A stretch of DNA of 64,000 nucleotides from an uncultured Bacteroidales bacterium. Its GTDB lineage: Bacteria > Bacteroidota > Bacteroidia > Bacteroidales > UBA10428. Below the pieces are notes generated by a model. The model had not been told where the DNA came from, did no database searches, and saw only the letters and a program-made list of their open reading frames with translations. Of the stretch, positions 14,136 to 57,915 are shown piece by piece (the first letter of the stretch is position 1; each line of letters opens with the position of its first letter). The DNA lies in assembly GCA_963790105.1 (NCBI GenBank), contig CAWBNI010000042.1, positions 27,235-91,234 of the forward strand, in the 5' to 3' direction. The translations under genes and the position numbers were made by a program.

Positions 14136-14300
14136 GGCAATTGTTTCTTGGCAATGTGCTATTATGCTAATGTGCCAATGTGCCAATCTGCCAATGTGCC
14201 ATATGTGCCAATGTGCCAATGTTCATGAATGCCAATGCGCTAATCATATACTATCGTCTCCTTGTGCCTTAGTGCCTTTGTGGCAAAACTGCAAAACTGC
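14136..14300 (+). repeat. Composite element: (GTGCCAAT/GTGCTAAT)n array, box GTGCCTTTGTGGCAAAACTGCA, AACTGCA units. A direct copy of the module on the other side of rpmH
   Basis: Array ~14136-14245, box 14272-14293, AAACTGCAAAACTGCGG to ~14300. Same order and orientation as 13688-13824. Confidence 0.8.
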
Positions 14301-14311
14301 GGACCAGTCCC

Positions 14312-16298
14312 TCACTGGTTCTTACAGGACGTGCGGTAATAGGTAAAAGCATTATCGGGACAGCCAAGATAACCTGAATATATATTATAGAACGAAAACC
14401 AATGAGATTCCGGAATTGTGATTTCCTGCCAGGTTGTGGTACCCACAAGGCGCATTCCCTCTTTCTTTTCATTTGCTATCCCGAAGGGCATCGTAAATCC
14501 GTCCTCAACTCCTGTCCAGCGGAATTTTAACAGTATGCTGTCATTTACATGTTTGTAAACATACGTCAGAACAGGAAGCTGGGTATCGAAAAGGTACTTG
14601 TCGAAAAAAGGTGTATAAGTCAGTTCCTGTATACTCATTTACAAACCGGATAAAATCATAGGAGTCGACTGTGTGATAGCGAAATTTCATCCAGAAATCA
14701 TGGATGATGCCGAAAAATACAGAATCATTATTGATTGTGCACCGGAGGCAGTGAAGCATCATGGCTCCCTTGGTGTAGACATCATTGCTGGCAAAGGTAT
14801 TTTCGTTCACATTACGGTTTTGCACGATGGGCCATATATTGAATATATATTTGGCTTTTTTCGGTCAGCTCATACATATATTCCTCCTTGCCGAAGCGGT
14901 TTTCAATGAACATGAGCTCGGCATAAGTGGCAAATCCCTCATGGATCCATATGTCGGCCATATCTGCTGCAGTTACGGAGTTTCCCCACCATTCATGGGC
15001 TGCTTCATGAACGATTATATAATCGTAGATCATGTTCCTGTACTCAGTACCGTTGTTTTTTTCAAAGCCATTTCCATAGGCAATGGCCGACTGGTGTTCC
15101 ATTCCTTCATAGGATGATTCCACAAGTCCAAACCCGTCGCGATTAAAGGGATAAGGACCAAAGGCCTTATCGTAAAAGCTGACTACATCACGCGTTTGCT
15201 TGAAGTGTTCTTTTGCCTCGATCGAGGTTATAACTCAGCACATTATAGTCCAATCTTACCGTGTCATCCGGATCTTTCAGCGTATCACTGAATGCCACAT
15301 ATTTTCCCACGTAAAAAGTGACATTGTAGTTGTTGATGGGATAGCTGACAAACCATGAAAATTTATCATTGTGTGAATCAACGTGGGTCATTTTTCTCAG
15401 GTTCCCGTTTGATACAGCCTGGTACCCCGAAGGTATGGTCAGATTGATCAGCATGGAATCGGGTTTGTCGCTGAGATGATCCTTGGTGGGCCACCAACTG
15501 CTGGCACCGAGGTGTTCACAGGCTACGCCCAGCCAAAGGTCTTTGTTTTTATCCTTTTGCCAGACAAATCCTCCATCCCAGGGCGGGTTCGGTGCATTCA
15601 TGCGGCTTTCCCTTATAGGCAATACGGATAACCTGGTCGTTGCCGGGCTTTAAAATCTCAGGGAAATCAATGAAAATAGCATTAAACTCCCTTCGATAGG
15701 GTAAGGTAATACCATTCCAGGTTATGCCCGTAACAGTATATCTGTCAAAAAGATCGATCTGAATGGTTTTTGACGGCTGTACAACATGAAAATAGATTGT
15801 ATTGCTTCCCTGAATTTTTTTGCCCCTGGGTATTATCTTTACATCGAGATCATAAAAATAAACGTCAAAACAGGTTCTTTCCGGCCGGAGTGCTCCGCGC
15901 AAGGTGTCAGCCCTTGTGTATTTCGGCCGGTAATTTAATTCAGGATATACTTTCTGATCCTTGTAAAACTGTTTTAGCAACAGGTCACGGACAAACTTGG
16001 GATCGCAAAGAAAACTTACTAACTGCCTGTTTTCATTTGATCCGGCAGCATGGGCAAGATTCAGATCTTCACAGGCCCCTTCTACATCACCCATGTACAG
16101 TTTTGAAATACCACGGTTATTCAGGCAGGAGGCATATCCAGGAGCGAGCTTTAACAGGGTATCCATCTCTTCAATCACCCCAATATAATCCGCCTGATCA
16201 AACCGCTTTAAGCTACTCTGCCAGATGGAATCTTCTGTATTTTGCGCCTGAATCGTAAGAGCAGACAACAAAAGGATGCTGATCCAAATTTTTTTCAT
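14312..16298 (-). pseudogene. M1-family zinc metallopeptidase (aminopeptidase N-like) with N-terminal TPR-like region; frame interrupted at least 4 times
   Basis: Five overlapping ORF fragments on the minus strand. Signal peptide MKKIWISILLLSALTIQAQ. Zincin motif HEAAHEWWGN...WIHEGFATY in fragment 14812-15123. GAMEN-region and C-terminal fragments follow in other frames. Confidence 0.8.
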
Positions 16299-19827: not shown

Positions 19828-19926
19828 CAAGGGACGGGGACAAGGGACAGAATTGCACTCAGAGACAGGATATTCTGTAACCCCTACCCTGCCGCGCTTG
19901 TCCCTCTGTCCCTCGTCCCTCGTCAC
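19822..19926. repeat. Inverted heptamer arms bridging convergent nadE and recQ stop codons
   Basis: Left arm GAGTGACAAGGGACGGGGACAAGGGACAG (19822-19850). Right arm CTTGTCCCTCTGTCCCTCGTCCCTCGTCAC (19897-19926) is its reverse-complement word family. 46-nt spacer. Both stop codons are the TGA of a GTGAC unit. Confidence 0.85.
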
Positions 19927-26208: not shown

Positions 26209-26217
26209 ACAAACGCA

Positions 26218-27566
26218 ATGCGCAATTTTTTCTTAATCATTCTTTCCGTTTTTCCAGGTATTGCAGAATATTTCAGCCCAACGTAAAATTATTGATGAGG
26301 TGGTGGCTGTGGTAGGAGACAAGCGGATACTGTATTCGGATATAGAACAAAACTACCTGCAGCAAAAAGCCCAGGGGGAAAAGGTGGATGAAAATTCCAA
26401 ATGTGCGATTCTCGAAAATATGCTGGTTCAGAAGCTTTTGCTGAATCAATCCGAGATTGATAGTCTTGAAGTAACCGATTCGCAGGTGGATCAGGAACTT
26501 GATTCACGTATGAAGTATTTTATTAATGCTATTGGTTCACAGGAAAAACTGGAAGAATACTTTAAAAAAACAACTCTTGAGATAAAGGAGGATTTTCGTG
26601 ATGAGATCAGGGATGGATTGCTTAACCGGCAAAATGAGGCAAAAGATCACAGAAGGATTATCCGTTACACCTTCTGAAGTACAGGGCCTATTTTAAGACC
26701 ATTCCGCAGGACAGTCTGCCCGTATATCAATTCGGAAGTTGAGTATAACCAGATCCTCATGTACCCGAAATCAAATGAAAAATCGATCATTGATGTGAGA
26801 GAGAAGCTTCTCAACATCCGCGAAAGGATTATGAACGGTGAAAGCTTTGCAACTCTGGCTGTGGTTTATTCCGAAGATCCGCAATCAGCCGTTAAGGGTG
26901 GTGATATCGGGTGGATGACCAAAACAGAGCTCGAACCGGAGTATGCCAAGGTTGCTTTTACGCTTAAAAAAGGGACAGATTTCGAAGATCGTTGAAACTT
27001 CTTTTGGATTTCATATAATTCAATGTCTTGAAAGGACGGAAGACAGGGTTCATACAAGGCATATTTTACTGCGACCCACCATTGCACCTGATGAAAAGAG
27101 ACATATTATCGCCCGGCTCGACAGTGTGATCCGGCTGGTGCGGCTGGATTCAGTGAAATTTGATGTGGCCGCCATCCGATGGAGTGAGGACCAGGACACT
27201 AAGACTAAACGGGGGACAGGCCGTTAATCCTTATAAGGGAGGTACATTCTGGGGAATGGATGAGTTTCGTCCGAATGAATTGAGCATCATCAATAGTCTG
27301 AAGGTAGGTGAGATTTCTGAACCTTATGAATCCATGGACAGCAAGGGAAAGACTGTTACAAGGTGATCTGGTTGAAGAAACGGACAAATCCCCATGTGGG
27401 AAATCTGAAAGATGATTATAATCTTTTCAAGGCCAGGGCTGCACAGTCCAAACAGAATGACCTGGTTAACGAATGGGTAGAAGAGAAAATTAAGACGACC
27501 TATATAAAGATTTCCGATAAGTACAGAAGTTGTCCGTTTGCAATGCATGGATGGCTTAAAAATTAG
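26218..27566 (+). pseudogene. SurA-like periplasmic chaperone / parvulin PPIase (frame interrupted about 5 times)
   Basis: Signal peptide in the ATG frame (MRNFFLIILSVF) switches at the T5 run 26249-26253 to ...QNISAQRKIIDEVVAVVGD (SurA N-domain). Parvulin segments (FATLAVVYSEDP..GGDIGW; FGFHIIQ; HTRHILL...) lie in ORFs 26759, 26943, 27160 and 27363. Confidence 0.7.
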
Positions 27567-27600
27567 GTTATCTGAAAAGAAACCTTAATGACAGTAAATT

Positions 27601-29104
27601 TTGATTTTTAGCAGAAAATCTCTTCTCTGTGGGCTGTTCCTGATTATAGCAGGAGTCCTTCATTCCCAGGTGCCCAAAAAGGTGGAGCATCACGAGAACT
27701 TTATGGAGTTTGACAAGAGTATTGCGGGAGGTGCCTACCGTCTTATTGGAAATGTTTCGTTTAAACATGAAGGAGCACTGATGTATTGCGACAGTGCCTA
27801 CTTTTATGCCAGCAGCAACTCATTGGATGCATTCAGCAATGTTCATATCGTTCAGGGTGATACGGTGGACCTTTACGGGGAATTTTTGCATTACGAAGGA
27901 AATACGAGGATTGCACAAATCAGGCAAAAGGTAAGCTGATCGGTAAGAATACAAAATTAGCTCACCCGGGCCCTCGATTTTGACCTGGGCCGGAATATCG
28001 GCTATTATAAAAATCATGCGGATATTGAAAGCGGTGAAAATAAACTCAGCAGCCGCCAGGGATATTATTATTCAAGGGAACAGATGTATTATTTCAGAGA
28101 CTCTGTAATACTGCGGAATCCTGACTATACTATCTATTCTGATACACTCCAGTACCTGACCACCACCAAAGTGGCCTTTTTTTTCGGCCCTACCCGGATT
28201 ATTGGGGACAGCAGTTATATTTATTGTGAAAAAGGATGGTATAACACGGAGACTAACAAGAGCATGCTTAAACAGAAAGCATGGGTAAGAAACAAAAAGC
28301 AGACCATCCGCGGCGATAGTTTGTATTATGAGAGGGAAACCACGTATGGCGAGGGATTCAGTAATATAGAATTACTTGATGAGGAACAGAACATAATTCT
28401 TCGTGGTAACCATGCATTCGTGAACCAGCTTGAGAACCGGGCCTTGCTGACAGACAGTGCCATGTTTATCTATATTATGGAAGATGATTCGGCATTTGTG
28501 CATGCTGATACGCTGAGAACAATGACAGATTCTGCCGGGCACCGGCTGTTGAAAGGATATCACCATGTGCGGTTGTTTAAATCCAATCTTCAGGGTATTT
28601 GTGATTCATTATTTTACACAACCCGGGACTCTATTCTGAAGTTATATCATAAACCCGTCCTGTGGTCGGGAGGAAACCAGCTTTCTTCGGAATATATTGA
28701 AATCTGGACAAAAAACAGGGAAGTCCACGAGTTGCATATGCAACAGCTTGCCTTCCTGATTAACCAGGAGGATTCCACGAGATTTAACCAGATCAAGGGG
28801 AAAACAATGATTTGCCATTTCGAACACAATCAGCTATATCGCATTGATGTAAACGGAAACGGGCAAACGGTATATTATGCCAAAGACAAGGACGATCATG
28901 ATCGGGGTAAATGTTGCACAAAGCAGTGACCTTGTGATCACAGTGAAGGATAATAAACCGGATATCATCCGTCTTTATAACAAAGCCAACGGCAACGTTA
29001 TATCCGGTTGGACTGGCTCCAAAAGAAGAATTGATCCTGAAAGATTTTAAATGGAATGAATCTCTGCGACCCGTAAACAGATTCGATATATTCAGAAAAT
29101 ACTA
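27601..29104 (+). pseudogene. OstA-like (LptA/LptD N-terminal type) envelope protein (frame interrupted about 3 times)
   Basis: TTG start with signal peptide MIFSRKSLLCGLFLIIAGVLHSQ. OstA-like repeats (GNVSFKHEGALMYCDSAYFY..., VILRNPDYTIYSDTLQY...). The reading frame continues in other frames to TAA at ~29102-29104. Confidence 0.6.
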
Positions 29105-31820: not shown

Positions 31821-34800
31821 TTACTTCATCTGAATCTCCTCCTCTTCCTCCTGAACCTTAGGCTTACTTGTCTTTTCCTGGTTATCAGAAAGCTGTTTCT
31901 TTTTTGCCTTTGCCTCATCGAGAATGCCATCATCGGTTTTCTGATAGTAATCAATCAGGCTCTGCAAGGTTTGTATCGCCTGGAAATCATCTCCCTTATC
32001 CCTGAAAATATCTGCCCACAGCAGGAAGCTTTTGGCCATCCAGTACTGGTGCGGAGTACTTTTGTCTGCAAAATCAGAGATTTCCTTTTCAGCATTCTGC
32101 ATTTCCTTGCGTTGATAGTAAATTTCTGCAACCCGGAACTTGGATTCAGCTCCTTCAACACTTTTTACTTCTGTTGGCAACTTTCTTGAATTCATCCAGT
32201 GCCAGAACCTGCCTGTCTCTTGCCAGAAGTGCCTTTGCTTTGGCAAAACGGGTTTCACGTTCCTGCTCCGGGGACAATTTTTCAGTAAGCAAAATTTTAT
32301 CTGCCAGGTCGGTTACCTTGTCATATTGTTCAAGCAATGAATAGCACTTGAGCATACCCATGCGCGCTTCGAGGAGATTACTTTTTACTTCGGCAACCTC
32401 TTCGAGCTTACTGTAATATTCTGCCGCCTTCTGGTAATCCTTTTGTCTGAATTCAATTCGTGAAGCGCCCAGGAGTGCAGGTTCTGTAAATCTGCTCTGT
32501 GGCCTGTCAATGATATAATTAAAGGATTGCAGTGCCTCATCATTTTCATTGGCCCTGTAATTGCAGTCTCCCTTGTAAAAGTTTGCATTGAGAACGAAGC
32601 GGCCATCCGGGTGTTTCTGAATATAATTTTTAAAGCTTTGGGAGGCCCTGGCATAATCTCCGCTCATATAGATCTTTTCAGCGGCCTGGTAACTGAGAGA
32701 ATCCTGTTCAATAAGATCGGCTGAGGTGAGCACACCCAAACCATTCACAAATGAATAATAGGAATCTACATCATTCATATCAACATATACATTCTTGAGT
32801 CCGATGAGTGCATTTTCAGCCTCCGGCGTGCCGGGATAATCATTGATGACTTGCTTATAACACTGGATAGCCTCGTTATTCCGGTTGGAATTAAAGTAGA
32901 TCAATCCCATTCCCACCAGGGACTTCTTTACGTAGCTGCTTTTCGGATAATCGGTGATTACTTTCTTATAGGTGGTCAATGCTTTGTCGGTCTGATTCAG
33001 TTTAACATAACTTTCGGCCATCTGGAAAAGCACATCTGCTTTCAGGGTGGAATTTGGATTTGTGCTGATGATCTTATTCAGCGTGGTTATCTTTTCATTA
33101 TCTTTTCCTGACACGCCCAGTGCAAGTGCCTTCTGGAACAAGAGCATAATCAGTATTTCCTTTTCCGTTTTTAATAGCCATGTCATAATAAGAAACTGCT
33201 TTTGCATACTCCATCTGCACAAATGAACAGTCTCCGAGCCGGTTATAGGCATCTGTCATAATTTCGGGCTGCTTGCTGTATCCTGTTGCAGTGAAACGGT
33301 TGAACCATATGGCAGCATCAGGATACTGATGAAGGCTGAAATAGCAATAACCCAGGTTATAAAGGGCCGGAGCATATTCATTCAGCTTTTCAAGCGCCGG
33401 TCTGTGAAATAAAACCTGAATAATTGTCAATTGCCTTCTGGTAATCTGAGGATCTGTAATAGGCTTCTCCCTTCCAGTAAAGGCTTAAGGCATATAATTT
33501 CTGATCATAGGTGCCATAACGGGTGGAGGAGGTGAGCAGATCTACGGCTTCTGTAAATTTGCCGTTGCTGATCAATTCAAGTCCCCTGTAATAGGCAATT
33601 TTCTGATAGGCTTTTTTGATCTCATTGTTTTTATCCCTGATTTTATCAATAGAAGAAAGAGCCAGGGTGTAATTTTTCGCATTCAGATAGGCCATGACGA
33701 GAAAGTTGTTTGCCTCATCGCTCCTTTTGGAATTCGGATACTTGTCGAGATATTCATTCAAAGCCTGAACAGCTTCATTAAACGGAGAATAATCAAGTTC
33801 ATAGGTCAGTAAGGCGCTATTGAACAGGGAATTTTCCTGGATTTCCGGGTCGAAGTCCATTTTGGCAGCTGATGAAAATGCCATCCTGGCCTTGTTTTTA
33901 TCATTCAGTTTCAACTGGCAATCAGCCAGGTGATATAGTGCATTCTGGCTCAGTGCTGATTCGGTTCCCGTGATCTGGCCAAAGAGAGCGGCTGCTTTGG
34001 CATAATCATTTGTTTTATAATAGGCATAGGCCAGGCTGTATTTATCCTCGCGGCTGGCGGAGGCAGAGCGATGCCATATATTTTTCAAGGTATGGAATGG
34101 CTTCTTCATACAGGTTAAGCTGGGCATAAGATTCGCCGATTATCCTGGAAACTTCGGGCGCTCTTTTTTCCGTAACATTCTGCATGAGGTTGGGACCATA
34201 TTTCACCACCTCGTCGAATTTTTTCTGCTTGTAATAGATCTGGGTAAGATAATAGGGAACAATGGGTCCGAAATTTGGATCATCTTTCAGGCGCAGGAAA
34301 CCTTCGAGTGCTGTTTCGTAATTTCCCTGGGTGTAGTTGATGTGGGAATAATAATACAAGGCCGGGGTCGTATATTTGGTATCGAGGTCCTTGATCTGGC
34401 TAAAGGCGTACCTGGCTTTATCATAATTCTCATCCAGAAAATAACAGTAGCCGCTTTTAAAGTAATATTCCGACAAATCATCACGGCTTAAACGGGAAGT
34501 TTCCACCTGGGAATAGTAATCCATTGCTTTATTGTAGCTCTTGCGCTGGTAAAAATATCCGGCAAGGTTAAGGATGGCCTCATTTCTCAGCGGATTTTCA
34601 GGATTTTTTGCCAGGAAGGTCAATGTTCTGCTTTCTGCATCGTTGTTAAATAACTTTACCGATGACATGGCGGAATAGAATTCACTGTTTGATACAAGGT
34701 CGGAGTTTTCCAGGCTATGCTCCTTCAGGTAACGGTCGAAATACTCCTGTGCTGCGCTGTATTTTCCATTGTTATATAACTCCAGGCCCTGCCTGTACTG

Positions 34801-34896
34801 GGCTTCCGTATTTGTGTTATAGTCGGTCTGCTGGGCTGTCAGAAACGCACTGAAAGACAGTGCAACCAACATATTTACAAGGTGTTTCAGATTCAT
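31821..34896 (-). pseudogene. Large (~1000 aa) tetratricopeptide-repeat protein (frame interrupted about 4 times)
   Basis: Five overlapping minus-strand ORFs (34042-34896, 33390-34127, 33098-33430, 32155-33252, 31821-32258), all with TPR-type A/Y/L periodicity. Signal peptide MNLKHLVNMLVALSFSAFLTAQ. Acidic C-terminal tail. Confidence 0.75.
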
Positions 34897-35152: not shown

Positions 35153-35845
35153 GTGGTTGTTTTTGAAAATGCTTCTATTTTCCAGGAAGATCACCTGGTC
35201 ATGTCGGGTGTTAACTTTTCCCTGGCCCGTGGCGAGTTTGTTTACCTGATAGGTCGGGTAGGTAGCGGGAAATCGAGTCTGATTAAAACTATTACGGCTG
35301 AACTGCCTTTAAAAGAAGGATCAGTGAGCGTGGTGGGATTTCAGCTTGAGTCACTCAGATCCAGGCAAATTCCCTTATTAAGACGGAAACTGGGAATTGT
35401 ATTCCAGGATTTTCAATTGCTGATCGACCGTTCTGTATATGACAACCTGTATTTTGTATTGCATGCCACCGGATGGAAGAATAAAGAGGAGATTGACCAG
35501 CGGATCATGCAGGTACTGGAAAAAGTGGAGCTGCAGAATAAGGGTTATAAGATGCCTCACCAGTTATCAGGCGGAGAGCAGCAGCGTGTTGTGATTGCCA
35601 GGGCATTGCTCAATGACCCGGAAATCATTCTTGCCGATGAGCCTACTGGTAATCTCGATCCTGAAACTTCGGAGGGAATAATGAATCTCCTGCGGGAGAT
35701 CAGTGAAAGCGGTTGTTCAGTATTGATGGCCACCCATAACTATACCCTGCTGAAAAAGTATCCGGCCCGCACAATGAAATGCCAGGACGGAAAGCTGGTG
35801 GAGATTCAGGAAAGTGATGAAATCGATTTTTCCACGCTGGATTGA
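35153..35845 (+). CDS. ftsE: Cell-division ABC ATPase FtsE
   Basis: GTG start. Walker [11 protein letters not shown]-loop, signature LSGGEQQRV, Walker [13 protein letters not shown]-loop. A possible N-terminal proline/glutamate repeat extension from ATG 35052 needs two frame corrections. Confidence 0.85.
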
Positions 35846-36341
35846 AGGAGGGACAAGGGACGAGGGACGAGGGACGAGCAGGAAATATCCTTTTAGAGGA
35901 TATCTGGCAGTAGAAGAAGTTACGGGGGATAAGGAATTCATCTGATATTATTTCCAGTTATACAATCCATTAACGATTTTGAATTTATTGGAATTACCAG
36001 AGGGTAATTTTAAAGTGGAAGGTCTTTATGTAGGGACGAGGGACGAGGGACAAGGAAGTTTTGCAGTTTTGCAGTTACTAGCGGTTCTGCGATCATGCAG
36101 TCGTGCAGTCGTGGGCAGATAAACTGTTCTGCGGTTCTGCAGTTAAGGTGCCGGAAAATGCGCGTAGCGCATTAATTATTGTAGAATGTGCAGTATGCTG
36201 CAGTTTTGAATGGTGTAGTCGAGACAGCCTCGGAGAGGCCTGATTTCAATAACCGTGGTGTACCCACGGAGAATGAGTGCGTTGTCTCTCAGCCCGAGGG
36301 CTGACAAAAATCGTAAATCGTATATCGTAAATCGTAAATCA
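35846..36341 (+). repeat. Composite mosaic region with arrays, hairpins and hp2 element A
   Basis: GGGACGA array 35846-35882. Hairpins ATATCC..GGATAT (~35886-35903) and ATTACC-agag-GGTAAT (~35993-36008). Second GGGACGA array 36030-36055. TGCAG arrays 36058-36144. Hairpin AATGCGC-gta-GCGCATT 36157-36173. hp2 copy A 36227-36269 (GCCTC-gga-GAGGC, TGATTTCAATAACC, CCGTGG-tgtac-CCACGG). AATCGTA array 36307-36341, ending 7 nt before the MORN gene ATG. Confidence 0.85.
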
Positions 36342-36348
36342 AATTCCC

Positions 36349-37020
36349 ATGAAAACCCAAGTCATTTTAGCATTTCTTTTCTTCCCTTTATGCCTGGCAA
36401 ATAGCCAGGAAAAAGAGGAATGCAAGGTTCTGGTCCCCGCCCTGGCCGGTGTTTATCAGGGCGGATGCAAAGACGGTCTGGCTCATGGTAAAGGCACAGC
36501 CAGCGGCACAGATGCGTATACCGGAGTGTTCAGAAACGGGTATCCCAATGGTAAGGGTACCTATACCTGGGCATCAGGCAATACTTACAAAGGTGATTGG
36601 AATATGGGAAAGCGCGACGGGGATGGAATATTTACAGGCAGATTGGATGGAAAGGATACTGTACTGGCAGGCCTTTGGAAGGATGATAATTTCATAGGAG
36701 CTAAACCTAGCCCTCCGAGAATTATAATGAAATATAATGTGGTAAGTACAACTTTTACGCGTACCGGCGATGGAAATAAAATTTCAATCTCTTTTTACCA
36801 GAATGGCATGATCAACAATGTGATGTCTTTGTCAATTGTCAGTAATTGCGGGAGTGAAGTTAAAAGTGGAAATATTACCAATTACTTTGATATTCATTTC
36901 CCCTTTCACTGTAAAATCAATTATCAGTCGTGGAATGGACTCAGAACGCAGCTTTTCGATTGTGTACTTGAATTTGAGATAACCCAGCCGGGAAGCTGGG
37001 ATCTGCGGGTGGGGAACTAA
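36349..37020 (+). CDS. Secreted MORN-repeat protein with uncharacterised C-terminal domain
   Basis: Intact 223-aa ORF with signal peptide MKTQVILAFLFFPLCLANSQ. MORN-type units (YQGGCKDGLAHGKGT, YTGVFRNGYPNGKGTYTW, YKGDWNMGKRDGDG). Confidence 0.75.
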   Translation: MKTQVILAFLFFPLCLANSQEKEECKVLVPALAGVYQGGCKDGLAHGKGTASGTDAYTGVFRNGYPNGKGTYTWASGNTYKGDWNMGKRDGDGIFTGRLDGKDTVLAGLWKDDNFIGAKPSPPRIIMKYNVVSTTFTRTGDGNKISISFYQNGMINNVMSLSIVSNCGSEVKSGNITNYFDIHFPFHCKINYQSWNGLRTQLFDCVLEFEITQPGSWDLRVGN

Positions 37021-37022
37021 GA

Positions 37023-37228
37023 AGTTCTGCGGTTCTGCAGTTCTGCAGTTCTGCGGTTATGCGGTTATGCAGTTCTGCAGTTCTGCAGTCGTGCAGGTCG
37101 GGCCTCGAAGAGGCCTCGATCTCAATAACCGGGTGTGAAAACCCACGGAAAATCGTAAATTGCAATCGGCAAATCGTAAATAGCAAATCTAAATCGTAAA
37201 TGCAATCGTAAATCGTAAATCGTAAATC
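37023..37228 (+). repeat. Composite mosaic element: (GTTCTGCA)n, hp2 element B, (AATCGTA)n. A direct copy of the module upstream of the MORN gene
   Basis: GTTCTGCR octamers 37023-37098. hp2 copy B 37101-37148 (GGCCTC-gaa-GAGGCC, TCGATCTCAATAACC, imperfect second stem). AATCGTA-type units 37150-37228, ending 5 nt before the GT4 ATG. Confidence 0.85.
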
Positions 37229-37233
37229 CCTTT

Positions 37234-38434
37234 ATGTCCTCCGTTTGCATGATATCCTCCCTCCACGGTCTCTATGATGACCGTATTTATTGGAAGGAGG
37301 CCCTGTCATTAAAAAATCATGGATATGACGTGATCCATGTTACTACAGGAGACAAAGATCTGGATTTTATCTCTGAACATGGAATCCGGTTAATCCAGGT
37401 AAAAAAGAAAAGGTATTTCCGGAATCCTTATCTGGACATACTGTTCCGCAAAATTACTTTCCGGCCGGATGTATATAAAAAGATGTTTCGGATTTGCGCA
37501 GCTCTGCATGCAGATGTTTATCATTATCATGATATTCAGATAAACCGTTTCAGCAGAAAATTAAAGCAGCTTTCGCATTCCCCGGCAGTGATCTATGATG
37601 TGCATGAGGACTTTTCCGATCTTATCCTTTCCGGCAGGCCATTAAACAGTCCGGTGAGATGGTTTTTCCAGCTGTATGCGGACTGGCTCAACCGGTGGGA
37701 GCTTTCCCGCGCTTCCTCCTGTGATTTTATTATCGCTGCTGTTGATCATATTTGTCAGAAATTTGAAAAGATGGCAGCACACGGGAAAGGCAGCGGTGAT
37801 TTATAATTATACAACCCTGCAGCCTGATACGATAACGCCGGCAGAAAAAAAGAAATACGATGCCATTTATTGCGGGCAGATAAATCCGGTGAGAGGGGGA
37901 ATGGAGATTGCACAGGCAGTGGTTCTTGCAAGGAAAGTGATTCCCGGGATTAAGGTTTTGCTGCTGGGTCCGGTTCCGGATGCGCAATATAAAAAGAAAC
38001 TGCTTGATGTGATTGAAAAAAACAATCTTCAGGACAATCTGATTCTTTATGGAAATGTGCCTTATAGTGAAATCGAAACATTCTACCAGGATAGCCGGAT
38101 AGGACTTGGAATTTTCATGCCTGTGAGCATATTTTATTATGGAATTCAGATTAAGACATTTGAATATATGGCGTTTGGTCTGCCTGTTATTTGCAGTAAC
38201 TTTGGAACCATTGATCAGATCATTCGTGAAACAGGATCAGGAATTACAGTTGATCCCCGTTCTCCTGAAGCCATCAGCAACGCCCTGATTACGCTCCTTA
38301 CAGATAAAGAATTATACAAAACCTGCAGCACAAACGGAAGACTTGCAGTAAAGAATAAATACAACTGGAAAACCGAGGAAGCCAAATTGCTTGATATTTA
38401 TAGGGGACTGTCACGTTTGCACGGAAATGCTTAG
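37234..38434 (+). pseudogene. Glycosyltransferase family 4 (GT-B fold), one frame interruption
   Basis: The N-terminal half (ORF 37234-37806) and the C-terminal half with the EYMAFGLPVICSN...G motif (ORF 37676-38434) overlap in different frames. Confidence 0.75.
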
Positions 38435-38469: not shown

Positions 38470-39946
38470 TTGATATTTGGCGAAAGATCCATACATTCTA
38501 ACAGGCAGATCCGGGATTTTATCTTTTATCTTTCAGGTTCTTTGATCCTGGCCCTGATTGCAATTGTAAGGCTTCCTGTTTTTACCAGTCACTTTTCACC
38601 GGCGGAATTTGGATTGTTCAGCCTGGTTTCAATTACCTATACCTACCTTTCCGTTGCCCTTTACAATTGGATCAATTCATGTGTATACAGGTATTATCAT
38701 GAATATGAAGAAAGCGGACAGTTGCAAATTCTGTACAGCAATATTTTTCTTCTTTTTCTCACTGCCAGTGCTGTTTTGCTGCTTGTATCCGTAGCCTGGT
38801 ATATTTCTGCCGGGGGAAAAGAGATCCGATCGCTCGTGGTCCCGGCCTTTTGCTTTCTTTTTACAAACCAGATTTTCAGTATTTTGCTTGTAATTTATAA
38901 AATCCGGGGGAAGGCATTAATTTTTAACCTTTTTCAGGCGCTGCAGGCAGTTTTTTCCTTTCTTCTTATCCTCCTGTTGATTTTCAACATGAACGTGGGC
39001 ATAAATGCTATTTTTATAGGTCAGGCCGGAATAAACCTGGTATTGACCATTATTCTGCTGGTCCTGAACCGTTCTATTGCTGGGTGAAATTTCCCCGGCA
39101 TCCTTATCGGTAGTGTTTATGCGTAAAATGATGCATTACGGATTTGTTGGCTTTATCAGTTCAATGGGCATATTTATTCTTATTTCATCAGACAGGTATG
39201 TTATTGCCCTCTTTCAGGATGTAAGCCAGGTAGGGATTTATAACCAGGTTTACCAGGTGGGACAGGTGAGTGTTTACTTCCTGGTCACTGTTTTCTTCAA
39301 TACCATCACACCCGGATTCAACAAATTGCTGACGGGATTTTCAAAGGAAAATGAAAAGCATACTGATGAATTATGTGTATGCATTTGTGCTTCTCATTTT
39401 ACCCCTGACTTTTTATGTTTCCATTTTTGCCCGGCAGGTAGCGGATTTTTTATTGGGGAAGGAATTCAGGCAGGGATTTGCAATGATTCCCTGGATTGTG
39501 ACCAGTTCATTTTTATATGGACTGACCCTGTTTAACGAGACTAAAATGAAATTTGAACATCGGTTCAGGCCGGTATTATGGGGCGTTATTATTGCCTGCG
39601 TGTTGAATGCAGCGCTGAACTTTATTTTTGTGCCCTTGTGGGGATATTCATGGGCCGCTATTTCCACATTTATCGCCTACCTGTTTCTTTTCCTTTATTA
39701 TTATTTAAAGGATGATTTTCCCTACTTGCGGGATAAGGGTCTTATCAGGATTGTACTGATCAGCATGACCATCCTGTTGTCGAAATGGCTATTGATATCA
39801 TGATCAGGAAAGGATTTTCAATTGATCTCAACAAATGGTTTACCCTGGCGGAAGGAGTTGTTTTTCTGGGAATATATGTGGGATTGGTATTACGTTTCAG
39901 GCTTATCCCGGATCAGATAGTCATCATTTTATCGGAAATAGATTAG
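38470..39946 (+). pseudogene. Polysaccharide/oligosaccharide flippase (Wzx/MOP superfamily), frame interrupted about 3 times
   Basis: Polytopic membrane protein spread over ORFs 38470-39087, 39077-39535 and 39351-39803 plus a further open frame to TAG at 39944-39946. Adjacent to the GT4 gene. Confidence 0.65.
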
Positions 39947-40203: not shown

Positions 40204-41513
40204 ATGAAAACAATTGTAACAAACATGAGTAAGGGCCTGGCCATGATGCTGCTGGTTTTCTCAATCACCGCCATGCAAGCCAAAGGTTCAGTTTTTAGCC
40301 ATTCAAGGGCTGCAAAGGATACAGCTTTCCGCACATTTACCGGTAAGGTAATTGATAACACCACTAAAAAACCAGTCGTATTTGCCAACGTATATCTCAT
40401 CGGAAGTAGTCTGGGAACCGTAACAAACGCCGAAGGAGAATTTGTGTTAAAGGTTCCGGTAACTGAATTAGACCGTAAAGTGGGCTTTTCCTACCTGGGA
40501 TATAACAACATGGTGGTAGCGCTGGCCGATATGAAGGAAAAGGACAATGTAGTGAAACTTGAGACTTCCGCCGTATCGCTCGATGCAGTTGTTATCCGTA
40601 CAGATGATCCGGTTGATTTGCTCAATATGGCCTTCAGGAAAATCAGCGAGAACTATAAGAGTGATCCTGAAATGCTTATCGGCTTTTACAGGGAAACAGT
40701 AAAACAGAACAAGAGTTACGTTGCAGTTGCAGAGGCAGTGCTGGATGTTTACAAGTCTTCGTATAACAGCATGATTGACTATGACAGGGTACAGATTTAT
40801 AAAGGCCGTAAAAGCCAGGATGTTAAGAAAATGGATACCCTGATGTTCAAACTGCAGGGTGGTCCCAGGACAAGCTTTCTGCTTGATGTTGTGAAGAATC
40901 CGGGTGAATTGCTGTCAGAAGATTATCTTGAGAACTACAATTTCAGGTTTGCAGGTTTTGCATACCATTGATGGCAGGGACAACTATGTGATTGAATTTG
41001 ACCAGAAGCAAAATGTTGAATTGCCGCTGTACAAGGGCCGCATTTATCTCGATACCAAGAATATGGCCTTTGCCCGACTGGAATTCTCCCTGAGTGATAA
41101 AGCACTTGTGCTGGCCAGCAGCGACCTTGTTCGCAAAAAACCCATGGATTTGAAGGGTTGACGTTCTGGGAGCTGACTACCTGGTTAACTACAGGGTGCT
41201 GAATGATAAATGGTATCTGAATCATGTGAGATCAGAACTTACCTTCCGCTGCAACTGGAAAAAGAAACGTTACAATTCAACCTATACCACAGCGCTCGAA
41301 ATGGCAGTAACTGACAGGGATACGATCAATATCAACAAGTCGAGATACAAAGATCAGTCAAAATCATCGGATATATTTGCCGACAAGGTTAATTCATACA
41401 AGGATGAAAACTACTGGGGAGAATACAACTACATCAAACCCGATGAATCGATAGAATCGGTCATCAACAAGCTCAACAGGAAACTTAAATGGAAAGCAAT
41501 CGGAGAAAACTAA
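40204..41513 (+). pseudogene. CarboxypepD_reg-like domain protein with ~330-aa uncharacterised C-terminal region (2 frame interruptions); paralogue of 43275-44895
   Basis: Signal peptide MKTIVTNMSKGLAMMLLVFSITAMQA. Carboxypeptidase-regulatory-like domain FTGKVIDNTTKKPVVFANVYLIGSSLGTVTNAEGEFVLKV. The C-terminal region aligns by eye with the STN protein (GFYRE..., YKGRIYLD/YKGRILLD, YWGEYNYI/FWGEYNFI). Confidence 0.6.
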
Positions 41514-44895: not shown

Positions 44896-45117
44896 CAAGT
44901 GACAATGTGCTAATGTGGCGAATGTGGTAGGATGTGCAAATGTGCTAATCGTGCCAATGCCATGTGCCAAAGGGCAATGTGCAAACTATGCCAACGTGCA
45001 AAACTGCAAGACTCATAAACTATATTTCTTATGTGCCATGGCAATGCCTTTGTGGCAATAACTGCAAAACTGCATAACTTCATAATCATAATTCATAATT
45101 CATAATTCTTAATTTCT
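44878..45117 (+). repeat. Continuous 240-bp chain of drifting short tandem arrays: GTGACGA, GTGACAA, TGTGCTAA/GTGCCAA, GTGCAAAAC, box, TGCAAAAC/TGCATAAC, CATAATT
   Basis: GTGACGA/GTGACAA 44878-44905. ATGTGC/GTGCCAA units 44904-45000. 10-bp palindrome TGCCATGGCA 45034-45043. Box TGCCTTTGTGGCAATAACTGCA 45045-45066. CATAATT units 45079-45117. Confidence 0.85.
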
Positions 45118-47543: not shown

Positions 47544-47783
47544 AGTGACAAGGGACAAGGGACTAGGGACAAGTCAGTTTGAATGTTGCCGAAGTCATCA
47601 CTTTGGGACACCAAAACAAATTTCGAAAATGTGAAAATGTAGACTAAGATTCAATTTGTAGAATCCTTTGTGCCTGTTGTGGCAGAAATATTCACGCCGA
47701 CTTTAGAACATTCGCTCAGAAGCCTGCAGAACCTGCAGAACTGCAGAACCTACTTGTTACTCGTCACCTGTCCCTTGTCACTC
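47543..47783. repeat. Mosaic element between convergent rlmI and MORN genes, with inverted heptamer arms
   Basis: Left arm GAGTGACAAGGGACAAGGGACTAGGGACAAGT (47543-47574). hp1 variant CCGAAGT-catc-ACTTTGG (47589-47606). Box variant CCTTTGTGCCTGTTGTGGCAGAAAT (~47665-47690). CTGCAGAA array 47722-47750. Right arm ACTTGTTACTCGTCACCTGTCCCTTGTCACTC (47752-47783), the inverted heptamer arm. Confidence 0.85.
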
Positions 47784-48223
47784 TTAACAAGTTCTCCTTT
47801 ATCGTACATCCCGCTCTGGCTGGTGCCATTAGCCCAGGTATATTTTCCCTGTCCCTGGAAAAGGTTATCCTTGAAGTAGCCGGTATATTTATCCCCGTTG
47901 GGATAGAAATAAATGCCATATCCGTTTTGAATTCCCTGTTCCCAGGCGCCTATATATTTTGATCCATCGGACCATATGTATGTGCCCTGGCCCTGGAATT
48001 TATCCTTTACCCACATGCCGTCATAGGAACTGCCGTCATTGCCCTTCAGCATGCCCCGGCCTTCTCTTAGTCCGTTCACAAAACCTCCTTCATAGGAAAA
48101 CCCGTTTGAATATCGATAGGTTCCCTTTCCATTTTCACAATTTCCATATACACATCCCTGCTTGTCCTGTGCATAGGCCATCACCGGTAAGAAGAAAATC
48201 AGGTAAAGAATCGTTCTTAGCAT
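47750..48223 (-). CDS. Secreted MORN-repeat protein (157 aa)
   Basis: Signal peptide MLRTILYLIFFLPVMAYAQ. About 6 MORN units (YEGGFVNGLREGRGM, YDGMWVKDKFQGQGTY, YIGAWEQGIQNGYGIY, YTGYFKDNLFQGQGKY). The last 9-10 codons (SDKGQVTSNK) are encoded by the heptamer arm. Confidence 0.8.
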   Translation of the reverse strand: MLRTILYLIFFLPVMAYAQDKQGCVYGNCENGKGTYRYSNGFSYEGGFVNGLREGRGMLKGNDGSSYDGMWVKDKFQGQGTYIWSDGSKYIGAWEQGIQNGYGIYFYPNGDKYTGYFKDNLFQGQGKYTWANGTSQSGMYDKGELVKSDKGQVTSNK

Positions 48224-49894: not shown

Positions 49895-50312
49895 GATATG
49901 AGTAGGGAGTAGTAAGAAGTAAGGAGTAAGGAGTAAGGAGTAGGGAGTAGGGAGTGAGGAGTAAGGAGTAATGGAGTGAGGAGTAGGAGTAATTCCTTTA
50001 GGGGTGAGACATTGGGGCGAATAATGAACAATGAGCAATGTGCCGAAGGCATCCCTTCGGGGAGAACTATTTGCAATTTGCAATATGCAATGTGAAAAGC
50101 AAATGTGCAATGTGCTAATGTGCAAATGTGCAAATGTGCTAATGTGCTAATGTGCAAATGTGCTGACTCAGTTATGCATAAACAAGGTACATATTACCCT
50201 GGAAGAATCAAATCACTGATTTGCAGTTACTGCCATTCACCATTCACCATTCACCATTCACTTTTTCAACCGCAGAACTACCTATCAACTATCAACCATC
50301 AACAATCAACTA
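49838..50312 (+). repeat. Largest composite mosaic region (~475 bp) with six array types and an hp1 copy
   Basis: GAGAGGG/GGTGAGA and GGAGTAA purine arrays 49838-49992. hp1 50023-50074, with stem CCGAAGG-catc-CCTTCGG at 50043-50060. AATGTGC-type array 50069-50165. CATTCAC array 50233-50261. CAATCAAC array 50283-50312, overlapping the CE15 stop. Confidence 0.85.
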
Positions 50313-51683
50313 TTTTTCAAAATACCGGCTTGCAAAATCAAGGAAAACAGGCCAGTTGGGAGCCGGGGTATGACCCCCGTCGTGCTGGCGAAAGGCAATT
50401 TCACCCTGAACCAGGGAAGTGCCTACTGGTGGAAATATATGGGTTCCAAGATCATTTTTACCGAGTAACTTATAAACCGGGCCGGCCGCAACAGCAGCCA
50501 TAAACATCCCCCTGGCATCCACCCAGGCATCACCAACTTCTCCACTGCTGATAAATACCGGCCGGGGTGCGCATAATGCGATCAGCTCATGAGCATCCAC
50601 GGGCAGATCGTCCCATGTCAGCGGTCCGGCATATTTCATGAAATTTCCGGCCATCCAGTGGTACTCTCCTGAACTGGCAATATTTTCAACCAGTTCACCG
50701 GCATTTCTCCTGTGCAGTTTAACTCCTGCCTCTCCCGAAGAACTTATAAACACAATGGCAAACCGGCTGTCATAAGCCATGGCCACAGCGGCTGCTTTTC
50801 CAAACCGGGAATGTCCTTCCATTCCAACATGTCTGGCATCAATCGATTTATCCGTTTCCATATAATCAAGAACCCGGCTGGCACCCCAGGCCCAGGCACG
50901 GAGAGCACCCCAATCGTCCGGTTTGCGGGGTTTTCCGCCATTCACCAGACCAATTATTCCCCTTGTTAATCCGGCCCCATAATCCGCCTGTACACTGGTG
51001 GGTAGATAAACCGCATAACCCCAGCCCCGGTTAAGTACCTGCTGCTGCCAGGAGGGTTGGTCGTTTCCGGCACTTCCCATGGGAGGGGGCGGAAGTTTAA
51101 AGCCCTTCGGAAAAACATAACCGAATTCCATGATTACAGGAACCGGTTTTGAAATATTGGCGGGTAGCGTGATAGTTACCTGTATATCTACCTGCACGGA
51201 GGGACAGGCAGAATTATCCACATGACCCACGAGTTTTTTTGAAATCACGCGTACATTGCCTTCCATTGTTTTTGTAATGCTGATTAGTTCCCATTTCACA
51301 GAAGGTGTTTTAGATGGCACACGGCCGTATATTTCCCTGTCAAAATCTTCCACAATTTCAGGACGTCGTTCTTTCCACCAAATTTCAGGAGTGTCGACTT
51401 TTCTGCCATTTTTCAAAACCAGGGGGTCGGGCAGTCTGGGATATGGATTTGCCTTGCTTTCATCATAATTGGCTGCATTGGGAGCATTCGGATCCATCCC
51501 GTTTACTCCCGGCCTGAGGGAAGTTATGTTCAGCAGTCCCATCATATATTGATGATCCTGTTCGGTTATCCTTTTGATACTATCCCATGCCGGACCCGGC
51601 TGCGCTGACAAATAGCTGCATGTTAAAACATAAAGGAAAACGATCGAAAGCAGGATTTTTAGTTTATGGGATATCATCACCAA
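50310..51683 (-). CDS. Carbohydrate esterase family 15-like glucuronoyl esterase (alpha/beta hydrolase)
   Basis: Intact 457-aa ORF with signal peptide. Nucleophile motif GHSRFGKAA (bacterial CE15 G-x-S-R-x-GK type) and C-terminal FRQHDGGH. Adjacent to a GH115 gene. Family call is from remembered motifs. Confidence 0.6.
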   Translation of the reverse strand: MVMISHKLKILLSIVFLYVLTCSYLSAQPGPAWDSIKRITEQDHQYMMGLLNITSLRPGVNGMDPNAPNAANYDESKANPYPRLPDPLVLKNGRKVDTPEIWWKERRPEIVEDFDREIYGRVPSKTPSVKWELISITKTMEGNVRVISKKLVGHVDNSACPSVQVDIQVTITLPANISKPVPVIMEFGYVFPKGFKLPPPPMGSAGNDQPSWQQQVLNRGWGYAVYLPTSVQADYGAGLTRGIIGLVNGGKPRKPDDWGALRAWAWGASRVLDYMETDKSIDARHVGMEGHSRFGKAAAVAMAYDSRFAIVFISSSGEAGVKLHRRNAGELVENIASSGEYHWMAGNFMKYAGPLTWDDLPVDAHELIALCAPRPVFISSGEVGDAWVDARGMFMAAVAAGPVYKLLGKNDLGTHIFPPVGTSLVQGEIAFRQHDGGHTPAPNWPVFLDFASRYFEK

Positions 51684-55589: not shown

Positions 55590-56797
55590 GTGAAAATTAC
55601 AAATGCCAAAGTGATTATTTGCAGTCCGGGAAGGAATTTTGTCACTCTCAAGATATTCACAGACGAGGGAGTATACGGCCTGGGGGATGCCACCCTCAAT
55701 GGGATGGAGAAGGCTGTTGTTTCTTTTCTTGAAAGCTACTGCATCCCAGCCCTGATTGGTATGGATCCGCGGAATACAGAAGATATCTGGCATTATTTTT
55801 ATCGGGGCATTTACTGGAAAAGGGGCTCTGTAAGCATGGCGGCCATTTCCGCCATTGATATGGCCCTTTGGGATATCAAGGGAAAGATGCTAAACACTCC
55901 GTTGTATAATCTCATTGGTGGTAAAAGCCGTGACAAGGTGTTGGTGTATGTGCATGTAAACGGAAATGACCTGAATGAAGTGTTTGAAAAAGCGAAAATG
56001 GCTATTGAGTCAGGCTATGAAGCCATCCGCATACAATGCGGGATTCCGGGCATTTCGCATTCATATGGAGTTTCAAAGGATGCCCGGTTTTATGAACCTG
56101 CCGAAAAAGGCTTACCTCCGGTTCAATATTGGGATACCTCCAAATATCTGAATTTTGTGCCTCACCTTTTTGAAAAAATACGGGCTGCAGTCGGTGATTC
56201 GATCCATCTTTTGCATGATGTGCACCATCGTTGTACGCCAGTTGAGGCTGCCCGGCTTGCCCATGAACTGGACCCGTTTCATTTATTCTGGCTTGAGGAC
56301 CCGGTTTCAGGCGAGTTGCAGGAGGGTCTTCGCCTGATCAGGCAGCATTCGCATACACCTATTGCCATTGGAGAGGTTTTTAATACAGGATATGATTATA
56401 CAACCCTGATCACGGAACAACTGATCGATTTTATCCGGATGCCGGTATCGCACGGGGGAGGAATAACCCATCTGCAGAAAGTGATGGCATTGGCCTCTTT
56501 TTATCATATTCAATCCGGATTTCACGGGGCCACCGATCTTTCACCTGTATGCCTGGCTGCATCACTGCATTTCAACCTGGCGGTCAACAATTTCGGGATA
56601 CAGGAATACATGCCGCATAATGATATGGTAAATGAAGTTTTCAGGGTGAATTACCATCTTGACAAGGGACATCTCTATATCAATGATAATCCGGGCATTG
56701 GAGTAGATATAGACGAAGAGAGTGCCGCAAAATTTCCCTATGTCAAGGCTTCCTTCCGGTGAACCGGAAGACAGATGGTACTTTGTTCTATTGGTAG
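55590..56797 (+). pseudogene. manD: Enolase-superfamily D-mannonate dehydratase (ManD), frame interruption in the last ~15 codons
   Basis: MKITNAKVIICSPGRNFVTLKIFTDEGVYGLGDATLNG... is typical of the ManD subgroup. ORF 55590-56762 ends ...FPYVKASFR. Shifting at GGCTTCCTTCCGG (~56745-56757) gives ...FLPVNRKTDGTLFYW, then TAG at 56795-56797, a ManD-like C-terminus. Confidence 0.8.
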
Positions 56798-56804
56798 TGA
56801 ATAT

Positions 56805-57000
56805 GTTCTGCAGTCCTGCGGTTTTGCAGTTTTGCAGTTTTGAAGTCATGCAGTCTCAGTCGTGCAGTCGTGCAGTCATGCAGTCGCCTTCGTGCAGTTC
56901 TGCGGTTTTGCAGTTTTGCAGTTTCAGTCACTCCCTCTCAATTCTCATCTCTCATCTCTCATCTCTCATCTCTCATCTCTCATCTCTCGTCACTCGTCAC
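56805..57000. repeat. Composite: (GTTTTGCA/GTCGTGCA)n TGCAG-type arrays, near-perfect (TCTCATC)6.5 array, inverted GTGACGA units overlapping the next gene's stop
   Basis: TGCAG-type units 56805-56929. TCTCATC array 56943-56988. GTCACTCGTCAC 56989-57000 (GTGACGAGTGAC on the minus strand), abutting the TAG stop of the minus-strand gene 57000-57911. Confidence 0.85.
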
Positions 57001-57911: not shown

Positions 57912-57915
57912 ATTT

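Follow-up and report, generated by a model that had tools for sequence, protein, structure and literature searches.

Does a gene that lies between two matching sets of direct repeats move as a cassette? The question is raised by a 64,000-nt stretch of DNA from an uncultured Bacteroidales bacterium (GenBank assembly GCA_963790105.1, contig CAWBNI010000042.1, positions 27,235 to 91,234 of the forward strand), hereafter called the window. In it, a gene encoding a 223-aa MORN-repeat protein is flanked on both sides by a TGCAG-type tandem array, a small structured element that we call hp2, and an AAATCGT heptamer array. An earlier examination of this DNA without database searches (the sequence-only reading) had suggested that the flanks, as direct repeats of about 200-280 bp, provide a substrate for recombination and mark MORN genes as variable cargo; it had also considered that consecutive genes might simply use the same 5'-leader module. 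We find that the MORN gene is stable and vertically inherited at its locus, and that the matching flank repeats are the ordinary spacer architecture of this Bacteroidales lineage, not the ends of a movable gene cassette. The spacers are probably composites of three independent things, a trailer array, hp2 and a leader array, assembled around a stable gene.

Gene order around the MORN gene

The MORN protein matches Pfam PF02493 (E = 2e-11), and its N-terminus is predicted from the sequence to resemble a signal peptide. An exact look-up of the protein sequence matched no record; the protein collection holds 61 homologues at 33-90% identity, and the orthologue group has a conserved length of 222-226 aa (alignment A1). 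Relatives were collected as 226 stretches from species-representative genomes, and loci are designated below by L numbers. The order TPR protein, FtsE-like ATPase, MORN protein, glycosyltransferase (GT) and flippase is kept in L001, L002 (= L006), L004, L005, L007, L010 and a 7-kb JGI contig, and the FtsE-like/MORN/GT order is preserved in part in L003 and L204. Where the sequence suffices, the genes beyond the GT also come in the same order: flippase, CarboxypepD_reg protein, ECF sigma factor and FecR. The FtsE-like protein is 80-99% identical across the syntenic loci, and the MORN proteins of the species that share the arrays are 68-86% identical (67% for L002).

The outgroup L010 carries the same three genes (FtsE 80% and MORN 57% identical) separated by spacers of 66 and 21 nt without repeats, and the MORN gene is therefore older than the repeats. 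No FtsE-GT junction without a MORN gene was found among the loci examined, which sample the group at the species level. The gene has the same neighbours in every relative recovered, including the repeat-free one. Moreover, array-bearing spacers also lie on both sides of genes unrelated to it, namely rpmH, a gene for a 455-aa protein (50310-51677) and the gene at 57000-57911, and MORN genes are therefore not special in this respect.

Layout of the two spacers

On both sides of the MORN gene the three parts are present on the + strand, in the same order and orientation, and the AAATCGT arrays (read as AATCGTA in the sequence-only reading) end 7 and 5 nt ahead of the ATG codons at 36349 and 37234, as had been reported. 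The features are as follows.

35153-35845, + strand: FtsE-like ABC ATPase gene, the left neighbour (Pfam ABC_tran, E = 1.6e-32; stop codon 35843-35845)
35850-35878, + strand: GGGACRA heptamer array, a 3' trailer beginning 4 nt past the FtsE stop (TRF and sequence)
35951-36029, + strand: conserved non-repeat block of ~80 nt in the FtsE-MORN spacer
36033-36055, + strand: second GGGACGA array (TRF and sequence)
36058-36145, + strand: TGCAG-type octamers in three patches, 36058-36077, 36081-36113 and 36126-36145 (TRF and sequence)
36157-36173, + strand: small GC hairpin AATGCGCGTAGCGCATT, a recurrent module inside an unrelated stretch of ~80 nt (promoter/terminator scan)
36224-36307, + strand: complete hp2, with hairpin A at 36227-36239, the core TCAATAACC at 36246-36254, hairpin B at 36253-36269 and hairpin C at 36290-36303
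36308-36340, + strand: AAATCGT heptamer array (x4.7), a start-proximal leader (TRF and sequence)
36349-37020, + strand: MORN-repeat protein gene, 223 aa (Pfam MORN; stop codon 37018-37020)
37024-37096, + strand: GTTCTGCAG octamer array (x8.4), beginning 4 nt past the MORN stop (TRF and sequence)
37099-37148, + strand: partial hp2, with hairpin A at 37100-37116, the core at 37122-37130 and hairpin B at 37129-37148, without hairpin C
37149-37228, + strand: AAATCGT-type heptamer array of ~11 units, partly degenerate, ending 5 nt before the ATG (TRF and sequence)
37234-38434, + strand: GT4-family glycosyltransferase gene, the right neighbour, in two open reading frames (ORFs) via a frameshift (Pfam Glyco_trans_4_4 and Glycos_transf_1)

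These coincidences are specific: the strict hp2 pattern has 0.00 expected occurrences in shuffles, and 9 of the 13 + strand occurrences of the AATCGTA heptamer fall inside the two MORN-flanking arrays. The two flanks are nevertheless alike in kind and not in sequence. The upstream module is longer than the downstream one and interrupted, its hp2 has hairpins A, B and C where the downstream copy has no hairpin C, and over ~900 nt the flanks share no exact stretch longer than 19 nt.

A sigma-70 promoter/terminator scan, uninformative where Bacteroidota promoters are concerned, was run on 35846-37233. Outside the MORN coding sequence it gave a single promoter-like match, at 36301-36328, and a pair of small terminator-like hairpins, at 36157-36173 and 36189-36202. 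Sequences resembling the first of these hairpins (GCGCGGAGCGCATT...TTGTAGA) are present in L001 and L203. The 35951-36029 block is kept in L003, L004, L005 and L007 and absent from L204 and L001; folded as RNA, it shows weak covariation, at only 2 of its 21 predicted pairs in an alignment of 5 sequences. Rfam gives no match to it, and by eye it contains no conserved end of a small ORF. Like a gene end, it is followed by a GGGACGA array of its own. The block could be a small RNA or a promoter.

In L002 and the JGI contig, one ORF of 399-402 aa encodes the GT4 glycosyltransferase. Several genes of the window are split into two or three ORFs (32155-34896, 37234-38434, 38470-39803, 26209-28083 and 40204-41500); they include the TPR protein, the GT4 glycosyltransferase and the flippase, which are single ORFs in L002 and fragmented likewise in L001. 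This suggests indel errors of a long-read metagenome-assembled genome (the relatives are Microflora Danica 'MFD' bins) and not real pseudogenes.

Tandem arrays at gene boundaries

We listed all spacers of the window, and 13 of them carry arrays of 7-8-nt units. The purine-rich arrays (GGGACRA, AGTGACR, GAGTAAGG and GAGAGGTGA) begin 0-17 nt past a stop codon, or further along that trailer, and all 11 of those in the window are purine-rich on the sense strand of the preceding gene. This strand rule includes the convergent spacers 19828-19922, 47544-47749 and 56763-56999, and the purine-rich arrays that were scored in L003, L004, L007 and L197 are sense-oriented as well. The GTTCTGCAG arrays follow the stops of five genes, those of the MORN protein, the second MORN gene of the window (47750-48223, - strand), rpmH (13904-14059, - strand), 14312-14638 and 55704-56762; the array at 45055 is the one exception to this placement. 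Some of the stop-following TGCAG arrays lie in convergent spacers, where no start codon exists. The A-rich heptamers (AAATCGT, CAATCAA, TTCATAA and AAATCAA) adjoin start codons. Since TGCAG and GGGACGA arrays belong to the stop side and A-rich arrays to the start side, the apparent three-part module resolves into the trailer of one gene, hp2, and the leader of the next. The suggestion of a shared 5'-leader module is therefore right for the AAATCGT arrays, which are start-proximal leaders, and wrong for the TGCAG arrays, which behave as 3' trailers, and for hp2, which is a separate repeat.

The arrays recur at orthologous sites. An AAATCGT array adjoins the MORN ATG in L001, L003, L004, L005, L007 and L204, with varying copy number, and an AAATCGT-type array also adjoins the GT ATG in those loci that reach the GT gene, with AAATCAA units intermixed in L007 and L204; the GT-side arrays of L004 and L005 finish in the identical AAATCCCTTTATG seen in the window. 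L001-L005 and L204 have a TGCAG array behind the MORN stop, the TGCAG array of the upstream spacer has a counterpart at the orthologous site in L004 and L204, and a purine-rich array orthologous to 35850-35878 is found in L001, L003, L004, L005, L007 and L204. The exact unit is kept while the MORN proteins themselves have diverged to 68-86% identity, which indicates selection or concerted evolution. Array density in the clade is 0.47 per kb, against 0.054 per kb in 76 other MORN-bearing Bacteroidales loci (~9-fold). Throughout the lineage, arrays fill gene boundaries in a strand-specific manner, and different species retain them at orthologous sites.

It could be argued that the arrays are neutral slippage debris or assembly artefacts whose position has no meaning, given that array copy numbers vary between species and that the many split genes of the window and L001 are typical of long-read indel errors. 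We regard this as very improbable, because the same arrays are present in the short-read contigs L003, L007 and L204, the strand rule holds without exception in the window, the unit is conserved at orthologous sites despite the divergence of the MORN proteins, and the arrays are ~9-fold enriched in one clade.

In the predicted RNA fold of 37018-37260, which has z = -6.2 against shuffles for the stretch as a whole, the TGCAG array forms one long hairpin (~37027-37088) starting 9 nt past the stop codon, and the AAATCGT array is predicted to be largely unpaired in the centroid structure. Two other readings of the arrays were tried and rejected. G-quadruplex formation does not account for the GGGACGA arrays in general, as orthologous arrays such as AGTGACG in L003 have no G3 tracts. 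The arrays are not a by-product of hp2 or of its associated enzyme (see below) either, as hp2-bearing metagenome loci have only ~2-fold the background array density, compared with ~9-fold in the clade.

Other array-rich spacers of the window contain further recurrent modules. The small gene at 13904-14059 (- strand), which had not been listed, encodes ribosomal protein L34 (rpmH) and has array-rich spacers on both sides. AATGTGCY octamer arrays occupy 13688-13729, 14152-14222, 44904-44959 and 50102-50164, and a hairpin module AATGTGCCGAAGGCATCCCTTCGGG(G)AGAA is embedded in such arrays at 13645-13675 and 50035-50065. Another module, GCCTTTGTGGCA(A/G)AACTGCAGAAC, recurs at 13745-13800, 14265-14305, 45035-45080 and 47665-47749, and joins a TGCAG array to the stop of a minus-strand gene in three of the four cases. 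In a single spacer, TTAGGGGC and GCTTAGGG octamer arrays (8788-8857 and 9009-9073) lie on opposite strands, each being sense for the gene on its own side; their unit includes TTAGGG, the vertebrate telomere hexamer, which is probably a coincidence.

The hp2 element

As defined from alignments A2 and A3, hp2 is an element of ~90 nt that consists of hairpin A (GCCNCGAAGNGGC), TAAATC, the core TCAATAACC, hairpin B (CCGTGGGTG.AACCCACGG), ~20 variable nt, hairpin C (CAGCCCYGAARGGGTTG) and AAT. We scanned metagenomes with the pattern TCAATAACCG-N(4-14)-CCCACGGA, and at least 120 stretches matched; 78 of the 133 matches that were read have a stem-loop at the position of hairpin A together with the hairpin-B core. 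In 57 distinct sequences, 93.3% of the cells are paired as against 85.8% in shuffles, both-sided changes occur in 12 of 20 pairs, and the observed covariation score was reached by none of 500 shuffles; slid controls of the structure are less than 50% paired. The search pattern itself dictates in part that the core and a portion of hairpin B are invariant; it does not dictate the covariation of hairpins A and C. G-U and U-G wobbles at two pairs (21 and 13 sequences) identify the listed strand as the structured one, either as RNA or as single-stranded DNA.

Approximately 90% of genuine hp2 copies are intergenic. Some stand alone, while others are tandem copies with a 68-nt period (L112, L127) or inverted copies that converge in pairs (L166, L174, L192, L202), and their orientation in metagenome loci modestly favours the downstream gene (46 vs 24). 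Rfam assigned no family at the gathering threshold to the window and none to hp2 across 20 hp2-bearing loci, a permissive Rfam scan of 35800-37300 gave chance-level matches only, and a full-text literature search for the hp2 core strings returned unrelated primer matches only. The element is a widespread, strongly covarying, dispersed structured repeat that is absent from Rfam.

A covariance model (R1) built solely from unrelated metagenome copies recovers both MORN-flanking elements, with 50.3 bits (E = 7.9e-9) for 36224-36307 and 36.9 bits (E = 6.2e-6) for 37099-37148. It also finds the following.

57911-57986, - strand: third hp2 of the window, with a different stem A (GCAC/GTGC), just 5' of the ATG of the gene at 57000-57911 (R1 29.1 bits, E = 3e-4)
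58006-58058, - strand: partial hp2, hairpin A and core (R1 14.2 bits, E = 0.5; weak alone, supported by identity to the neighbouring copy)

There are thus 3-4 copies in the 64-kb window, and 7 in ~44 kb of the loci of the clade. As side observations, the hairpin-B half is tandemly amplified with a period of ~21 nt (GAGTGGGTGTGAGCCCACGGA...) in L119, L142, L196 and L170, so that part of hp2 can form arrays of its own, and the metagenome contig L109 carries an arrangement of a TGCAG array, hp2 and a AAATCAAC array, as well as a DUF805 RNA motif at 1737-1805 on the - strand (Rfam RF03081, 71.7 bits).

An hp2-bracketed Y1 transposase gene

Two identical direct hp2 copies, 883 nt apart in L160, led to a 148-aa ORF that matches Pfam Y1_Tnp (E = 4.8e-22). 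It passes the NCBIfam equivalog transpos_IS200 (61.7 bits, cut-off 55) and scores far below the cut-off for REP_Tyr_transpos (23.7 bits, cut-off 80). Homologues with 67-85% identity adjoin hp2 in eleven further metagenome loci, and a distant one is found in L143. In the alignment the HUH motif is invariant, and the tyrosine aligning with ISDra2 Y132 is kept in 10 of 11 sequences, in the motif YIKNQQEHH. With model R1, the arrangement of a forward hp2, the Y1 gene and an inverted hp2 was found in all 12 loci, the inverted copy lying 5-12 nt past the stop codon. These are ten informative metagenome loci and two Mb-scale contigs (L205 and L206), the former being L148, L112, L160, L156, L114, L121, L141, L187, L190 and L196. 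The Y1 family comprises at least 1,533 clusters, and its members are named at source either as IS200/IS605 transposase (Mariniphaga, Prolixibacteraceae, Bacteroidales) or as RayT; in the protein collection, each exact Y1 sequence is on only one to a few contigs.

In the L160 copy (10788-11234), an asparagine replaces the catalytic tyrosine (NNIRDQQEHH, compared with YIKNQQEHH in 10 homologues), and this copy may be inactivated or, alternatively, may reflect a sequencing error. A HigB-toxin/HTH_3 antitoxin pair lies within ~2 kb of the Y1 gene in L205 (4133-4916) and L206 (751-1516), on opposite sides of the gene, which may be a coincidence or a sign of a shared island.

The distribution of hp2 and its link to the enzyme bear on the possibility that hp2 is mainly a cis-acting RNA (a leader, an attenuator or a 3'-end stabiliser) selected site by site, with the Y1 association being secondary. 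Compensatory changes and wobbles single out one structured strand, each of the four window copies points the same way as the gene downstream of it and is 40-90 nt ahead of that gene's ATG, metagenome copies lean in the same direction, and the copy between the MORN and GT genes is kept in four species. However, hp2 is found at variable distances from genes, in tandem runs, in convergent inverted pairs and in all gene-orientation contexts; inverted copies bracket the transposase gene in every one of the 12 loci; wobble pairs fit hairpins in single-stranded DNA equally well; and Rfam holds no such family. A predominantly cis-acting RNA is for these reasons unlikely, and the two roles are not exclusive, since the repetitive extragenic palindromic (REP) elements of E. 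coli are mobile and also act on mRNA.

Structured imperfect palindromes in direct orientation around one promoterless-looking gene are also reminiscent of the attC sites that surround integron cassettes. The R' consensus of attC is GTTRRRY, and hairpin C terminates in GTTGAAT, which fits it. The likeness ends there: hp2 is made of three local hairpins without end-to-end pairing, it occurs as inverted pairs and tandem runs, its associated enzyme belongs to the HUH Y1 transposases, the stretch that was read in detail shows no evident integrase gene or attI, and the neighbouring genes are conserved and of housekeeping type. We give the integron interpretation practically no chance.

History of hp2 at the MORN locus

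In the MORN-GT spacer, R1 found hp2 in L003, L004 and L005; L001 and L204 have remnants only, and L007 has none. The downstream copy goes back to an ancestor of several species. Only the window genome has the upstream one, which is absent from the orthologous spacer of L004, L204, L005, L003, L001 and L007, and the bracket is therefore younger than the residence of the MORN gene. A 23-nt insert in loop B of the L004 copy recurs in an L001 copy from an unrelated spacer, which implies that replacement or conversion can take place between copies at different loci. At these sites hp2 is present, degenerate or absent independently of the arrays. We also considered that the upstream module might be a simple tandem duplication of the present downstream one and rejected this, as the upstream hp2 has hairpin C and the downstream copy and its orthologues do not.

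Could the bracket, as a recombination substrate or as a pair of recognition sites, still allow deletion, duplication or exchange of the MORN gene? The modules do lie in direct order and orientation, both MORN-flanking hp2 copies have a stem seen in no other aligned copy, and the hp2 family is linked to a DNA-cutting enzyme. All of this would suit a cassette, but it is outweighed by the constant position of the gene in all eight relatives, the repeat-free one included, by the short exact identity of the flanks, by the late arrival of the upstream hp2, and by the other genes that are bracketed alike. As hp2 is in ~3 of ~45 window spacers, finding it in two adjacent ones has a chance probability of ~0.13 (our own estimate). 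A cassette with variable cargo is thus very unlikely.

Comparison with known systems

Close counterparts of hp2 and its enzyme are the REP elements and REPINs with their REP-associated tyrosine transposase (RAYT, or TnpA_REP) genes, together termed the 'REPtron' (Nunvar 2010; Bertels & Rainey 2011, PMC3116915; Ton-Hoang 2012; Quentin 2018, PMC6006769). Like REP elements, hp2 is short, structured, extragenic and present in many copies, as singlets, inverted doublets and clusters; inverted copies surround a small HUH/Tyr Y1 gene of which each exact sequence is on one to few contigs; and copies persist at orthologous sites across species. Unlike REP elements, hp2 has no GT[AG]G (or CGTC) guide tetranucleotide at the foot of a hairpin, TCAATAA preceding hairpin B and GTGG occurring only within the stem (CCGTGGGT), and its unit is made of three hairpins with the conserved TCAATAACC linker. 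The enzyme also differs from class-2 RAYTs (Y---N) by its IS200-type Y---Q--HH signature, which is that of Quentin's subclass 1.2.

With IS200/IS605 elements the system shares a Y1 HUH enzyme that passes the IS200 equivalog, hairpin-containing ends, and dispersed small copies without a gene (cf. PATEs, palindrome-associated transposable elements). In IS200/IS605, however, the left and right hairpins are on the same strand, whereas the flanking hp2 copies are inverted in all 12 loci; moreover, no tnpB partner was seen beside the hp2-linked Y1 gene, and exact sequences are restricted to one or a few contigs. Another counterpart of the enzyme is TnpA_Y1 subclass 1.2, which has the Y---Q--HH signature, is low-copy, occurs mostly in Bacteroidetes and Cyanobacteria, and generally has no flanking IS200-type hairpins (PMC6006769). 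The hp2-linked enzyme resembles it in its YIKNQQEHH motif, its length of ~148 aa, its Bacteroidetes sources and a conserved C-terminal tail, but departs from the described subclass in that the 12 Y1 genes are all tightly bracketed by hp2, copies of which are also dispersed. Our search of the literature for TnpAY1/REPtron work after 2018 found only Quentin et al. As the guide tetranucleotide and the class-2 RAYT signature are lacking and the ends are not on the same strand, we do not file hp2 and the Y1 gene in either family: they are a new, REPtron-like variant, a member of neither REP/RAYT nor IS200/IS605.

The arrays have a different set of parallels. Intergenic direct repeats of heptamers, the short tandemly repeated repetitive (STRR) sequences, are said to have been described in cyanobacteria by Mazel in 1990. 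TAACTGA heptamers occur in Beggiatoaceae, cyanobacteria and some Bacteroidetes, with proposed translational roles, and some Bacteroidetes spacers contain several heptamer arrays where those of close relatives are short and repeat-free (MacGregor 2015, PMC4679880); a Nostoc preprint reports that start-proximal heptamers affect expression. The arrays of the clade are similar in being tandem ~7-mers in spacers, in the forward orientation and a few nt from starts, with several array types per spacer, indels in 7-nt steps, and close relatives with short array-free spacers. They differ in their units (AAATCGT, GGGACGA, GTTCTGCAG, AATGTGCY and others), which include octamers besides heptamers, in falling into two classes, one near stops and one near starts, that obey a strand rule, and in the conservation of the unit at orthologous sites in several species.

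Discussion

How, then, would the spacers have come to look like the ends of a cassette? From the anatomy of the spacers, the synteny, the conservation of the arrays with its strand rule, the covariation of hp2 and the association with a transposase gene, which were all observed, we infer mobilisation in trans, slippage, and RNA-level roles of the trailer and leader arrays. In the scenario that we propose, a 3' trailer array of GTTCTGCAG octamers or GGGACGA-type heptamers follows the stop of the upstream gene on the sense strand, and the self-complementary TGCAG array is predicted to form a single long hairpin there. Next to it, hp2 would be a REP-like non-autonomous element, of the family found in inverted orientation around a small Y1 HUH transposase gene; the analogy of REP/RAYT and IS200/IS605 makes it most likely that the Y1 enzyme copies hp2 as single-stranded DNA. 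The AAATCGT 5' leader array, finally, probably keeps the initiation region unstructured beside such strong hairpins. Bacteroidota are a phylum that is not reliant on Shine-Dalgarno pairing. The arrays would lengthen and shorten by slippage and yet stay in place across species, and hp2 copies would be gained, replaced and decayed independently of them. In the window genome both spacers happen to contain hp2, and this happenstance gives the appearance of a bracketed cassette.

Several observations weigh against this scenario or narrow it. The two MORN-flanking hp2 copies share a stem A (GCCTC/GAGGC) that is present in no other copy aligned; local copying between the flanks, or gene conversion, would explain this, and the flanks are therefore not fully independent. 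The exact conservation of AAATCGT at orthologous sites exceeds what simple slippage would give and hints at selection or at a sequence-specific process. The putative trailer and leader roles are read only from position, strand and predicted folding, and the populations were sampled at the level of species, not of strains. Lastly, no Y1 gene of the hp2-linked family turned up in L001-L083 or in the window, which covers ~64 kb of this genome, so mobilisation in the window genome is putative.

A bolder version combines two proposals: that hp2 is the cognate REP of TnpA_Y1 subclass 1.2, which would make it a new REPtron type with a composite three-hairpin repeat, and that the arrays are a selected, strand-specific punctuation of gene boundaries, read by a nucleic-acid-binding protein with a register of ~7 nt. 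We consider the two together doubtful. If they were true, the arrays would be more than slippage debris and would be maintained by selection, and hp2 would represent a previously unrecognised REPtron type.

The answer to the cassette question is a clean negative, the repeat bracket being a by-product of spacer filling in this lineage. By the standards of the lineage the locus is an ordinary one; the undescribed REP-like family and the clean strand rule are of moderate interest. Compared across species, the STRR-like arrays of this clade make an unusually clear case, with a strand rule, stop and start classes, and conservation of the unit at orthologous sites, and the purpose of intergenic heptamer repeats thereby becomes more testable. 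With hp2 and its Y1 gene, the REP/RAYT idea would come to include an IS200-like subclass previously believed to lack cognate hairpins.

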